From the IMG/VR virus record IMGVR_UViG_2563366875_000004, positions 1 to 42,427 of that record: a DNA stretch of 42,427 nucleotides; one strand, written 5' to 3'. The stretch's first letter is position 1, and each line of letters opens with the position of its first letter. The position numbers were made by a program, and so were the translations under genes. This document shows positions 15,110-17,772 of the stretch, piece after piece. The notes beneath the pieces were generated by a model. That model did no database searches, was not told the DNA's origin, and was given only the letters and a program-made list of their open reading frames with translations. Origin of the DNA: a virus (lineage: Duplodnaviria > Heunggongvirae > Uroviricota > Caudoviricetes).

Positions 15110-15113
15110 GCGC

Positions 15114-15143
15114 TTGACCAGACACATTGTCCGGGGCTATATT
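15114..15143 (+). promoter_or_regulatory. pR'-like late promoter (-35 TTGACC, 18-nt spacer, -10 TATATT)
   Basis: Directly after the Q stop; followed about 65 nt later by a terminator, as for lambda pR'/6S RNA/tR'. Confidence 0.4.
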
Positions 15144-15206
15144 TCCGACGCAACCGCAAAATCGGTTGTCGGGATTAGCACCCCGGATGTTTACGGAGCG
15201 ATATGA

Positions 15207-15226
15207 GACGCGCCCGCGTCTTTTTT
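15207..15226 (+). terminator. tR'-like intrinsic terminator
   Basis: GACGC-tetraloop-GCGTC followed by TTTTTT. Confidence 0.5.
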
Positions 15227-15390
15227 CATATCGTTTGCACAGTCACATTCGCGATTAATGGCGGGCTGTGTGGGGGAGCCGAAAGGCTCGCCGGTTTCCG
15301 TACCCGGTAGTGCTAACCCCGCACAGTTCGCCACCACGATGATTAGCACCTGACGGTGGCGATAATGTCCAAATGTACGGAGTTATCGTT

Positions 15391-15954
15391 ATGACCACTC
15401 AGATTTCTGTCGAAACTCTTTCCCCAATTACACACAACCAAATTCCCGTTATCACTACCGAGTTACTGGCACAGCTTTACGGTACAGATTCAGATAACAT
15501 CAAAAAGAATTATTCGCGTAACGCAGATCGTTTTTATGAAGGTAAGCACTTCTACAAAGTGATTGGTGATGAACTAAAGAATTTGCGGGTGACTTTAAGT
15601 CACTCACAAAATCCCATCTCTCCCAAAACCCGCTCGCTCATACTCTGGACAGAACGCGGAGCAGCCCGCCACGCAAAAATGCTGGAAACCGATCAGGCAT
15701 GGGAGGTATTCGAAAAACTGGAAGATTGTTATTTCAGCCGAAAACAACCAGCTGCAGCACAAAACACATCTATCGAAAATGATGGATGCGCATTACTGAT
15801 CCACTTCGATAAACACGGTCAGGTCGACTTCACGGAAAAAGTACCCGCCGATGCGATGGTATGCACTCTGGAACGGTTCAAATTTTATCTGGAACAACGC
15901 GGCTGGATCGTTGCCCGTAAAGAACAACTGGTGGAATGGTTGATGCGGTTTTAG
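15391..15954 (+). CDS. ORF6N/Rha-like DNA-binding domain protein (candidate antirepressor or regulator), 187 aa
   Basis: N-terminal pattern ITTELLAQLYGTDSDNIKKNYSRNADRFYEGKHFYKV plus LILWTERGAARHAKMLETDQAWEVFEKLE resembles ORF6N-type domains as recalled; GGAG RBS. Confidence 0.55.
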   Translation: MTTQISVETLSPITHNQIPVITTELLAQLYGTDSDNIKKNYSRNADRFYEGKHFYKVIGDELKNLRVTLSHSQNPISPKTRSLILWTERGAARHAKMLETDQAWEVFEKLEDCYFSRKQPAAAQNTSIENDGCALLIHFDKHGQVDFTEKVPADAMVCTLERFKFYLEQRGWIVARKEQLVEWLMRF

Positions 15955-15999
15955 GTGCGACAGCCCCACCATCTTTATAGTAGTGGGGCTGAAAGTTCA

Positions 16000-16545
16000 T
16001 TACTGAGTGACTTTTAGCCCACTAAATTTAAAAATATACTCTGGTTCTGTTACTTTTCCATAGAGGGTCATGCTTGATTCAAGGATGCAGTCCTTTGAAT
16101 TAGGGATAAAACGCCCTGAAAATGAAACTATATCACCAGGTTTTAATTCAGAGGCCACCGTGAAAATTTCAGAGTCAGGGCTGATAAGAGTATGATGACG
16201 AGAATCGGAAAATGCGTTATTCCAGGTTTTAACTTCAATGTCTGGTGCTATCTCCAAAGCCAACACGCCGTAACCATCACTATTGGCAGAAACAGTTTTT
16301 ACAGTACCAATCCAGTTTTTAACTTTTTTATCTTTTCTTAAGGTTGCGCAAACCGCTTTGTCTCGTTTTGCTTTTATTCCGCCCAGCTTCATGTCGTTAT
16401 CAACACCTTTAGCTGATGAAATTGCGTTTGAGACCGCCTCGATGAACTTTTCCTGCTGCTCAGGCATCTGGTAAGCAAAGGCTGGTGTCTGAAATATGGT
16501 AACCGAAAACGCTATGGTCATGATTTTTGTAAAAACACTATTCAT
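16000..16545 (-). CDS. Secreted (Sec signal peptide) protein of unknown function, 181 aa; AT-rich cargo gene
   Basis: Signal peptide MNSVFTKIMTIAFSVTIFQTPAFA with AFA cleavage motif; opposite strand to the late operon; lower GC than neighbours. Confidence 0.65.
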   Translation of the reverse strand: MNSVFTKIMTIAFSVTIFQTPAFAYQMPEQQEKFIEAVSNAISSAKGVDNDMKLGGIKAKRDKAVCATLRKDKKVKNWIGTVKTVSANSDGYGVLALEIAPDIEVKTWNNAFSDSRHHTLISPDSEIFTVASELKPGDIVSFSGRFIPNSKDCILESSMTLYGKVTEPEYIFKFSGLKVTQ

Positions 16546-16737
16546 ATTTTTCCCTAAAACAAGAAATAATGAAACAAAGAGCGCTCAAATATAAGCTTGC
16601 TTAGATTACCCATCCCTTAAACCCTTATCAACAGTATGTATTTGGGTTGTATTGTTCATCATGTGTGTTTAGGGCTTTACGATCGTAAAAAGTTGAATAT
16701 CCTGTTAAGAGTTGTTACTTCGCCACACAGCTTAAAC

Positions 16738-16759
16738 CCGCCGCCAGGCGGTTTTTTTT
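16738..16759 (+). terminator. Intrinsic terminator
   Basis: CCGCC-GCCA-GGCGG followed by T8. Confidence 0.55.
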
Positions 16760-16956
16760 GTGTCCGGAAAGTGGTGCAGTACGTTAAATGCGCATGTTGT
16801 TTTTTCTAAAATTCAGAAATAATAAAAACACATGCATATATTTACGAATATTGACATAATTTTCTATTGAAAAAAGAGCCGGCATTATTAATATCCATCT
16901 TCGGTTCCGAAGGGGATGTAAAGCGCGGTCATTTTTATTTCTCTTGAGGAACCAAT

Positions 16957-17032
16957 GCCGACTTAGCTCAGTAGGTAGAGCAACTGACTTGTAATCAGTA
17001 GGTCACCAGTTCGATTCCGGTAGTCGGCACCA
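16957..17032 (+). tRNA. tRNA-Thr (anticodon TGT), 76 nt with encoded CCA
   Basis: Cloverleaf readable: acceptor GCCGACT/AGTCGGC, D-loop AGTAGGTAGAGC, anticodon loop CTTGTAA, T-arm GGTTCGATTCC, CCA end. Confidence 0.85.
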
Positions 17033-17035
17033 TAT

Positions 17036-17110
17036 GCGGGTATCGTATAATGGCTATTACCTCAGCCTTCCAAGCTGATGATGCGGGTTCGATTCCCGCT
17101 ACCCGCTCCA
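17036..17110 (+). tRNA. tRNA-Gly (anticodon TCC), 75 nt with encoded CCA
   Basis: Acceptor GCGGGTA/TACCCGC, anticodon loop CTTCCAA, T-arm GGTTCGATTCC; 3 nt after tRNA-Thr; close to E. coli glyT as recalled. Confidence 0.85.
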
Positions 17111-17379
17111 GCAGAGGACGATAGATACTAGGTTGTGTTAGGCACTGACACATTTTATGTGGGGCGTTTTTCCTGACTCCTTACCTCGCCCTGTACTGTA
17201 ATGAGTGATATCGGTTGCAGCACCAGTGCCGTTTTTTACGCCACCGGAATGGTGCATTATTGGTAGAGATTTGCAATGTCTCTGGCAGGGGCCGGTGATG
17301 CATCATTCTGGTGTTGTAAATAACACCATGACATTGAGATTAATCATATATTAAGCAAAACCTGGAAACACATCCTTAA

Positions 17380-17404
17380 CCGCCTCCACCAGGCGGTTTT
17401 TTTT
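17380..17404 (+). terminator. Intrinsic terminator downstream of the tRNA pair
   Basis: CCGCCT-CCACC-AGGCGG followed by T8. Confidence 0.6.
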
Positions 17405-17731
17405 ATTCTTAATTCGAAAAAAAGAAAACACGGACACTGATAATGTCCGTGCGGCAATGCCATGTAAGTCAGCGATGAATATGGCGCAAAAAAGCGCGGC
17501 TATCGGATTAACGCCGCGGGACAAAGTCCGTGAAGAAGAATAAGTATCGATCTCCTTCCGGAGACGAGTTGATATTACTAAGCTTTAAAAATGGTTTAAA
17601 TCCTCAGATTGACCTTAATTTCCGGTAAGTCTTATTTCATTTTCTCCGCGCTACCTCCGGCGCACATCACATCAGATAACACCACACAAAAGGCATCTGC
17701 AGGTGCCTTTGACGGGGTGTTGTTTTTTTAC

Positions 17732-17754
17732 GGGCCGCTGGTGGCCCTTTTTTA
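17732..17754 (+). terminator. Intrinsic terminator immediately upstream of the holin gene
   Basis: GGGCC-GCTGGT-GGCCC followed by TTTTTTATTT; 18 nt before the holin RBS. Confidence 0.5.
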
Positions 17755-17772
17755 TTTACAGGAGAAAAAAGT

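Follow-up and report, generated by a model that had tools for sequence, protein, structure and literature searches.

The DNA between the Q antiterminator gene and the holin gene of a lambda-like prophage, positions 15110-17772 (2.66 kb) of a 42.4-kb stretch of viral DNA (IMG/VR record IMGVR_UViG_2563366875_000004, positions 1 to 42,427; hereafter the window), is probably a mosaic of known, self-contained modules and not a single cargo operon gated by Q, with the late promoter pR' at 16676. Upstream of this interval lie a DUF968 gene, rusA and the Q gene, and downstream, from 17773, a lysis cassette of holin, holin-family and M15-endolysin genes; a metagenome contig (L017) is 99.97% identical to window positions 14700-18200. 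The direct evidence consists of homologies, complementarities, co-variation, insertion boundaries and conservation, and from these we infer all transcription, termination, Q dependence and antirepressor activity considered here. An initial annotation had listed an ORF6N protein, a reverse-strand secreted protein, two tRNAs and four terminators, all of which are present, the tRNAs as tRNA-Thr and tRNA-Gly and the terminators as hairpins at 15205, 16738, 17378 and 17732. It had read them as a variable cargo slot of the Shiga toxin (Stx) phage type gated by terminators; this view of the slot stands, but the operon map that accompanied it does not, and an antisense-RNA cassette had been overlooked. 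Throughout the interval we find new examples of known module types, and no general principle is changed.

As judged from homology, the late promoter most likely acted on by Q lies at 16676, about 1.5 kb downstream of the site right after Q that had first been taken for pR'. The Q gene (14723-15109, plus strand) encodes 128 aa from an ATG, in an open reading frame (ORF) that opens with GTG at 14714, and is of the 933W/Stx-phage type (Pfam PF06530, E 2.5e-52). Its product is 81% identical over 124 aa to the Q protein of the Stx2 phage Min27, a 933W-type phage, fits the short (128-144 aa) Stx-phage Q clade and distantly matches the solved Q21 structure (6JNX/6P18, E 2.5e-7); an NCBIfam search with Q gave no match. 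In Min27 and 933W a TTTACG N16 TATCAT promoter with a hairpin terminator overlaps the end of Q, and the 933W record (AF125520) labels pR', qut and a 'possible rho-independent terminator'. This block aligns to window positions 16676-16759, not to 15114, and is nearly invariant from the -35 to about +25, after which follows the pR'-proximal hairpin T2 (16738-16759, plus strand; CCGCC GCCA GGCGG and eight T), the homologue of the 'possible rho-independent terminator' at 20726-20748 of 933W. The pR' homologue in the window reads TTTACG N16 TATCCT (16676-16703, plus strand; predicted start near 16710) and is followed by a conserved initial transcribed region with the putative qut (16676-16733). When the window is aligned with 933W, Min27 and three E. 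coli prophages, TTTACGATCGTAAAAA..TG.ATAT..TG.TAAGAGT.GTTAC...GCCAC.CAG is invariant. In 348 phage records, nearly all from Stx or E. coli lambdoid phages, a Q gene has pR'-related sequence at its 3' end. In the Sakai Stx phages the PR' start was mapped by differential RNA sequencing (dRNA-seq) 258 nt upstream of the 3' end of tR' (Sy et al., 2020; PMC7547250), which in the Min27 sequence falls about 7 nt past the TATCAT -10.

The arrangement in the window differs from that of the Stx phages in its spacing: the pR' -35 lies 1,567 nt past the Q stop (15109), with an antirepressor cassette and an inserted secreted-protein gene (a moron) between them, and does not abut the 3' end of Q. Near 16769 the homology to Min27 and 933W stops, and the 258-nt leader that ends at tR' in the Stx phages, with StxS as its last 74 nt, was not found; the next strong plus-strand terminator after T2 is T3, about 700 nt from the predicted pR' start. 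The leader at 16710-16759 matched neither isrJ nor any other Rfam family. Because of the pR'-block homology, the varied contexts of the cassette promoter (P_isrK) and a parallel in the Salmonella prophage Gifsy-1, we take the cassette to have been inserted between Q and the pR' cognate to it, and T2, not the hairpin at 15205 (T1), to be the first terminator that Q would have to overcome. If pR' lies at 16676, the ORF6N and secreted-protein genes are upstream of it and therefore outside the Q-dependent unit.

Three smaller observations concern Q and its promoter. At 14731-14820 a CGT-to-CGA change, synonymous in Q, destroys the rusA TGA stop found in relatives, so that the rusA ORF is 29 codons longer and overlaps Q by 98 nt (14723-14820); the gene caller consequently cut Q to 46 aa in the near-identical contig L017. 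The Stx-phage hairpin homologous to T2 lies within the 258-nt StxS precursor (8977-9234 of L004) and so is read through at least partly; it may act there as a partial terminator or as part of the Q-loading region. AAGAGT (16707-16712) and CAAAAT (15157-15162), two -10-like motifs noticed by eye, were considered as sigma-dependent pause or Q-binding elements and given no weight, as this Q family has no defined consensus.

By its homologies and complementarities, the cassette at 15114-15954 is an IsrK/C4 antisense-RNA-controlled antirepressor unit with a predicted promoter of its own, as in the Gifsy-1 isrK locus and P1 immI. P_isrK, the 'pR'-like promoter' of the initial annotation, has the sigma-70 form TTGACC N18 TATATT (15114-15143, plus strand; 10 of 12 consensus positions). 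It starts 5 nt past the Q stop and ends 6 nt before 15150, so that its predicted +1 is the first base of a full-length (1-77) Rfam match to isrK (15150-15226, plus strand; RF01394, 74.3 bits against a gathering score of 50). Five homologues, taken from four different upstream contexts, show no change in its -35 or in GGGGCTATATT. Promoter and transcript are kept behind the 933W-type Q in the window and its E. coli relatives, behind an 82-type Q in Gifsy-1, behind a DUF1133 Q-like gene in phage pPE4, and behind a methylase gene in the nin region of Min27, where the cassette copy lies 2.3 kb upstream of Q. The promoter-like site at 15114 is real, but it is better read as the cassette's own promoter than as pR'.

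The predicted 77-nt IsrK-like small RNA ends at T1 (hairpin 15205-15222 and six T, plus strand; -9.7 kcal/mol) and carries the boxes b1 (TTAGCAC, 15175-15181) and a1 (TACGGA, 15192-15197). The corresponding a1/b1 target element (RF03163, c4-a1b1) scores 45.6 bits in the window against a gathering score of 46.7, and 47.8-50.6 bits, above that score, in the five homologues L001, L004, L005, L011 and L020. Downstream of T1 lies a C4-type antisense RNA, the equivalent of Gifsy-1 STnc1160 (15254-15338, plus strand; RF01695, 77.2 bits against a gathering score of 45), and then its downstream targets (15343-15382), b2 (TTAGCAC, 15343-15349) and a2 (GTACGGA, 15375-15381). The C4 loops are exactly complementary to both pairs of boxes: loop a' (TCCGTAC, 15297-15303) pairs with a1 (15192) and a2 (15375), and loop b' (GTGCTAA, 15310-15316) with b1 (15175) and b2 (15343). 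Box a2 overlaps the Shine-Dalgarno sequence GGAG (15379-15382) of the antirepressor gene, and the 251-nt leader fold has z = -4.6 with the C4 stem intact. The gene itself (15391-15954, plus strand; 187 aa) begins with an ATG at 15391 preceded by this GGAG, in a longer ORF that opens at 15373. Its product has an ORF6N domain (Pfam PF10543, E 1e-20), matches PHROG 2379 'anti-repressor' over its full length (E 5e-88) and is 52.7% identical over 98% of its length to STM2616/AnrP of Gifsy-1; an NCBIfam search with it gave no match.

Co-variation of the boxes gives further evidence for this control. Five combinations occur across the homologues: b TTAGCAC with a (G)TACGGA in the window, b TTGGCGT with a ATCACCG in Gifsy-1, b TTAGGAAC with a GAAACCA in E. 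coli TUM9757, b TTGGCGT with a GAAAAAGG(A) in E. coli N61, and b TTAGCAC with a TCGAAAC in the Min27 nin-region copy. The b loop and both its targets change together in all five; a' and a2 match exactly in all five, and a1 in four, TUM9757 having no exact a1 match. Co-varying boxes of this kind are a signature of control of the P1/P7 immI type, which we predict here on the strength of these complementarities. The details of immI (c4-icd-ant) reportedly go back to work by Citron and Schuster in 1990. Window and immI share an antisense RNA embedded in the transcript that it controls, loops a'/b' complementary to upstream a1/b1 and downstream a2/b2, a downstream box over a ribosome-binding site, an antirepressor as the controlled gene, and specificities that differ among relatives. 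They differ in that the window has no icd-like coupling ORF between C4 and the antirepressor ATG, a2 covering the antirepressor's own Shine-Dalgarno sequence instead, and in that T1 stands between a1/b1 and C4 and would yield a separate small RNA; moreover, the antirepressor of the window is an ORF6N protein in a lambdoid prophage, and the cassette lies beside Q.

The functional expectation for the cassette comes from Gifsy-1, where the isrK promoter drives a translationally silent read-through transcript into anrP, the short IsrK supplied in trans raises anrP translation more than 100-fold, and AnrP both increases antQ-operon transcription and brings about prophage induction (Hershko-Shalev et al., 2016; PMC4825925). 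In the window, P_isrK would yield the 77-nt IsrK RNA ending at T1, and read-through past T1 a transcript with the C4-type antisense RNA followed by the antirepressor gene. Pairing of the C4 loops a'/b' with a2/b2 would block translation of the antirepressor, since a2 overlaps its Shine-Dalgarno sequence. IsrK, because it carries the same boxes b1/a1, could compete for C4 or remodel the leader and so release translation, and the antirepressor would then inactivate the prophage repressor, as AnrP does in Gifsy-1. Given the homology to AnrP and the Gifsy-1 experiments (PMC4825925), the ORF6N gene, first described as cargo, is better read as a regulator of the lysis-lysogeny switch under predicted antisense-RNA control than as a passive passenger.

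Two further observations were made on cassette homologues. L016 and L018, which are 95.6% identical to the window here, have a second IsrK/C4/ORF6N cassette at 9978-10540, 84% identical and upstream of the DUF968 gene, so one prophage can hold two such switches. The phage pPE4 sequence (L005; PP818812.1, 'Actinobacillus phage vB_Apl-pPE4') has 87-96% nucleotide identity to the cassette and lysis genes of the window, and to E. coli prophages. This is unexpected for a phage of a Pasteurellaceae host; the host may have been misassigned, or the phage may have an enterobacterial origin.

The likeness to Gifsy-1 extends over the whole locus (antQ-isrK-orf45/STnc1160-anrP-isrJ). Both have Q, a TTGAC(N) N18 TATATT promoter (TTGACA N18 TATATT for isrK of Gifsy-1), a 77-nt IsrK with its terminator, a C4-like RNA and an ORF6N antirepressor, and downstream of these a second promoter with a short terminated RNA, one or more tRNAs, a reverse-strand accessory gene and the holin. 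They differ in the type of Q (933W in the window, 82 in Gifsy-1), in a/b box specificity and in the target of a2, which in the window lies directly on the antirepressor Shine-Dalgarno sequence with no convincing orf45; the reverse-strand gene stands before the second promoter in the window and after it in Gifsy-1. The second promoter also differs, being the 933W pR' homologue in the window and that of IsrJ in Gifsy-1, where anrP is followed by TTGCAA N17 TATATT and the small RNA IsrJ (Rfam RF01393). In Enterobacter phage CobraSix and in Klebsiella phages, which have no cassette, the IsrJ-type promoter and RNA abut a Q with 59% identity: in CobraSix the Rfam isrJ match (62.6 bits) begins 16 nt past the Q stop (compared: L023 2537-2610 and L020 3597-3671), and in the Klebsiella phages the IsrJ promoter and 5' half abut Q. 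This arrangement suggests that IsrJ is the late-promoter leader of 82-type Q phages; no statement of IsrJ as a pR' leader was found in the literature searched, which is not proof of absence.

One may further propose that the cassette is a self-promoted mobile regulatory module that has landed exactly between Q and its cognate pR' at least twice, and in Q/pR' families unrelated to each other, behind the 933W-type Q here and in the E. coli and Salmonella relatives and behind the 82-type Q of Gifsy-1, a proposal whose chances we judge to be evenly balanced. If it is true, IsrK is not a pR' leader, unlike its description by Sy et al. (2020), and IsrJ, a virulence-associated Salmonella small RNA, is the pR'-tR' leader of Gifsy-1, corresponding to lambda 6S RNA and StxS. 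At such an insertion site, antirepressor expression would also be tied to transcription that arrives through Q, which would make a feed-forward step in induction.

The principal alternative keeps the late promoter at 15114: P_isrK would be the Q-dependent pR', IsrK its short leader, terminated in the manner of lambda 6S RNA, and the whole stretch between the ORF6N gene and the tRNAs, both included, cargo of one late operon behind four terminators. P_isrK is indeed the strongest consensus promoter of the interval, it lies 5 nt past the Q stop in the classical position of pR', its predicted transcript stops at an intrinsic terminator after 77 nt, and Sy et al. derive the Gifsy-1 IsrK from an antitermination-regulated promoter (PMC7547250). 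We nevertheless consider this map unlikely. This promoter with its transcript is found behind three unrelated Q types and, in the Min27 nin region, behind a gene that is not Q, and Q-specific recognition at 15114 is therefore hard to reconcile with its contexts. The annotated pR' of the Stx phages, which fits the mapped start, is homologous to 16676-16759 and not to 15114, and IsrJ is displaced in like manner in Gifsy-1. Were the late operon to begin at 15114, it would, in addition, have to cross a 546-nt gene in antisense.

Several points weigh against a late promoter at 16676 and the cassette control proposed above. The hexamers of the pR' homologue are weak (8 of 12 consensus positions, with a -10 of TATCCT), and it was overlooked by the initial annotation as well as by the consensus promoter scan; it is the homologue of the pR' annotated in 933W. 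The mapped PR' product of the Stx phages is 258 nt long and ends at a second terminator (PMC7547250), and hence the T2 homologue must be leaky there or have another role; the second terminator and StxS are absent from the window. The element bound by 933W-type Q is undefined, and as far as the sequence tells Q may also engage RNA polymerase at P_isrK. Sy et al. describe IsrK as the product of an antitermination-regulated promoter (PMC7547250). As to the antirepressor, the Gifsy-1 study attributes the action of IsrK to orf45 and alternative leader structures, not to titration of C4 (PMC4825925), and the window has no convincing equivalent of orf45: the sole candidate is a 31-codon ORF (15258-15353) inside C4 that ends 38 nt before the ATG at 15391, with no evident coupling geometry. 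The transcript map proposed for this element is, finally, drawn from sequence only.

It is also conceivable, with a probability that we put somewhat lower still, that both promoters feed the late operon, Q acting at 16676 while read-through from P_isrK, or from the early operon via Q, adds to it in a feed-forward unit. All elements except the moron are co-oriented, in Gifsy-1 an RNA of about 910 nt begins at isrK, includes anrP and stops at the isrJ terminator (PMC4825925), and the position of the cassette exactly between Q and pR' in two Q families suggests a favoured site. Unmodified polymerase from P_isrK would, however, meet T1, the 15961-15991 hairpin, T2, T3 and T4 in turn, and the position of the cassette could simply reflect a permissive intergenic site.

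With pR' placed at 16676, the terminators can be set against the modules that they border. The four plus-strand hairpins followed by T-runs (15205, 16738, 17378 and 17732) have stems of -9.7 to -12 kcal/mol and six to eight T. A scan of 7 kb gave 16 terminator-like sites against 7.8 +/- 2.9 in shuffles, and a stricter scan of the whole window gave 15 plus-strand sites, three of them in the 2.66-kb interval against about 0.9 expected; T1, which fell just below the cut-off of the stricter scan, would make four. The enrichment is modest, and we take the terminators as real because T2, T3 and T4 are retained in diverged relatives, which is the better argument. T3 (17378-17398 and eight T, plus strand; -12 kcal/mol) ends the trailer behind the tRNAs, and its stem is preserved in relatives despite an A-to-G change that turns a T-A pair into a T-G wobble. 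A hairpin at 17690-17709 and T4 (17732-17747 and six T) make up a plus-strand block (17690-17753) immediately 5' of the holin ribosome-binding site; from 17676 on, all relatives have 88-99% identity to this region, and L022 has T4 unchanged. The expectation that four terminators precede the lysis genes holds in that several plus-strand terminators do lie between the late promoter and the holin, but only three of the four (T2, T3 and T4) would gate those genes. In the proposed sequence of events pR' (16676-16759), cognate to the 933W-type Q, is probably constitutive and starts near 16710; its transcripts would be stopped at T2, and those that leak through at T3 and T4. After induction Q would load at pR', and RNA polymerase would pass T2, T3 and T4 into the lysis genes.

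A further view denies the terminators any collective insulating role: they would be the end signals of independently acquired modules, and their clustering a by-product of mosaic assembly. It accords with the modest enrichment and with the place of each at a module boundary drawn by comparison with relatives (T1 falls within the cassette, T2 goes with pR', T3 follows the tRNA block and T4 accompanies the holin block). Yet T4, just 5' of the holin ribosome-binding site, closes no gene that precedes it in the window, and 933W has the same series between pR' and cargo. We give this idea very little credence as a rival, largely compatible as it is with the explanation that we prefer.

Two tandem terminator-like hairpins with T-runs were also noticed on the minus strand (17428-17452 and about 17494-17521; -15.4 and -11.2 kcal/mol), upstream of which no minus-strand gene or promoter was identified.

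On the evidence of gene order and homology, the true Stx-type slot is the stretch from pR' to the holin, which carries the two tRNAs and conserved non-coding DNA, with its cargo site empty. It corresponds to the Stx phages' late region, as had been proposed: Q is 81% identical, and the promoter, early transcribed region and first hairpin are homologous. In 933W the annotated order is Q, pR', qut, two terminators in succession, a promoter for tRNAs, the three tRNAs themselves, one more terminator and stx2, with S and R further on. In the window as in 933W, tRNA genes with a promoter of their own (a candidate one in the window) are followed by more terminators before cargo and lysis genes. The window differs from 933W/Sakai in the distance of pR' from Q (1.57 kb), in lacking the StxS part and tR' at +258, in its tRNAs (Thr and Gly against Ile, Arg and Arg), and in having no toxin and an empty cargo site before the holin.

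The tRNA unit (16867-17406) is expected to have its own promoter and to end at T3. The candidate promoter, TTGAAA N16 TAATAT (16867-16894, plus strand; 9 of 12 consensus positions), is conserved in position in L001 and L002 and is analogous to pT of 933W and to a mapped Stx-phage tRNA start site. It precedes the genes for tRNA-Thr(UGU) (16957-17032, plus strand; Rfam 73.8 bits) and tRNA-Gly(UCC) (17036-17110, plus strand; Rfam 65.6 bits), both identified by ARAGORN and both identical in the E. coli relatives. The codons ACA and GGA make up 26% of the Thr and 21% of the Gly codons in the genes of the window, which is roughly twice typical E. coli usage. From tRNA-Gly to T3 extends a conserved non-coding trailer of about 290 nt (17111-17406, plus strand), 84-92% identical in relatives and with no annotated gene, which could be a tRNA-linked processed RNA. 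The whole spacer from the tRNAs to the holin (17111-17772) is covered to at least 80% in 38 complete E. coli genomes, and the best eight (about 91% identical) carry no annotation in it. Two sets of Rfam matches in this region were rejected: CyaR at 17334-17403 (31 bits against a gathering score of 47), which was judged to be driven by the T3 hairpin, and reverse-strand 'Plastid-ycf2' matches, which are the tRNA genes read backwards.

The spacer also contains a 32-codon ORF (17530-17628, plus strand; MKKNKYRSPSGDELILLSFKNGLNPQIDLNFR) that is intact in four diverged relatives, in two of them with an ATG start. Differences among the relatives are in part synonymous (e.g. CGG/AGG/AGA) and in part alter residues; the ORF matched no NCBIfam or PHROG family and is unannotated in E. 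coli genomes.

The empty cargo site is placed at 17669-17676 by a break in alignment, exactly where L016, L018 and L021 carry a TerB-DUF3927 cassette of about 680 bp; in the proposed layout the segment 17669-17753 comprises this site and then T4, directly before the holin ribosome-binding site. Comparison of related prophages, which the initial annotation had called for, shows differing cargo at the same places: after pR' either a 65-aa ORF with a DNA methyltransferase or an AraC-type regulator, and elsewhere the TerB-DUF3927 cassette, extra tRNAs of other kinds and, additionally in L001, a DUF4145 gene before the holin. Cargo expression had also been expected to differ between lysogeny and lytic growth through Q; since each module has a promoter candidate of its own, such differences would not depend on Q alone. 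The lysis genes that follow encode the holin (17773-18165; Pfam PF16931), a second holin-family protein (18140-18430; PF05449) and the M15 endolysin (18427-18810; PF13539), all on the plus strand.

The remaining module is the moron, a reverse-strand, low-GC insertion of about 720 bp (15955-16673) with a promoter candidate and a hairpin of its own, which encodes a predicted periplasmic OB-fold protein. Lambdoid morons are promoter-gene-terminator insertions between conserved phage genes, and the unit in the window resembles them: it lies on the opposite strand, exactly between the ORF6N stop and the pR' -35, and contains a candidate promoter (TTGATA N17 TAATCT, from 16631 down to 16603), one ORF (16000-16545) and a hairpin (15961-15991) of -18 to -21 kcal/mol between the convergent genes. 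Its GC content is 39.4%, against 45-55% in the flanks, and it is absent from the E. coli relatives L001-L003, in which the homologue of 16674 follows within about 16 nt of the ORF6N stop. The 181-aa product begins with a Sec-type signal peptide (MNSVFTKIMTIAFSVTIFQTPAFA/YQ), and its structural model (pLDDT, predicted local distance difference test, 89) has two helices and an OB barrel. An identical protein is found in 212 assembly blocks and a 91%-identical one in Salmonella, at the same site in all places read. Citrobacter, Gilliamella and Polynucleobacter are among the bacteria with homologues, which often follow a membrane anchor; among species-representative genomes there were only distant ones (Gilliamella, Bartonella, an alphaproteobacterium), with no clue from context. 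The protein matched no Pfam, NCBIfam or PHROG model, and neither a family profile nor a close structural match links it to the BOF periplasmic proteins (YgiW/YdeI). The ideas that it belongs to the BOF family or is a toxin B-subunit or a protease inhibitor were left as unsupported.

Outside the interval, a hok/sok-type toxin-antitoxin locus was noticed at 12148-12319 (plus strand; Rfam sok, 108 bits against a gathering score of 59), with a HOK_GEF gene at the same place in relatives.

Some interest attaches to the recurrence of the cassette between Q and pR', to what is implied for IsrJ, namely that it is a late-promoter leader, to the five antisense specificities and to the uncharacterised secreted OB-fold protein of the moron. 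The placement of pR' determines which genes depend on Q, so that only induction releases them, and which are open to expression in the lysogen; a pR' at 16676 would remove the antirepressor and the secreted protein from the late operon. The window documents a 933W-type pair of Q and pR', the unit that controls Shiga toxin expression, in a non-toxigenic prophage whose cargo site is empty, and a simple origin is suggested for the small RNA IsrJ. By the co-varying a/b boxes, at least five specificities of this RNA-controlled antirepressor switch can be told apart, which could underlie cross-talk, or its absence, between co-resident prophages.

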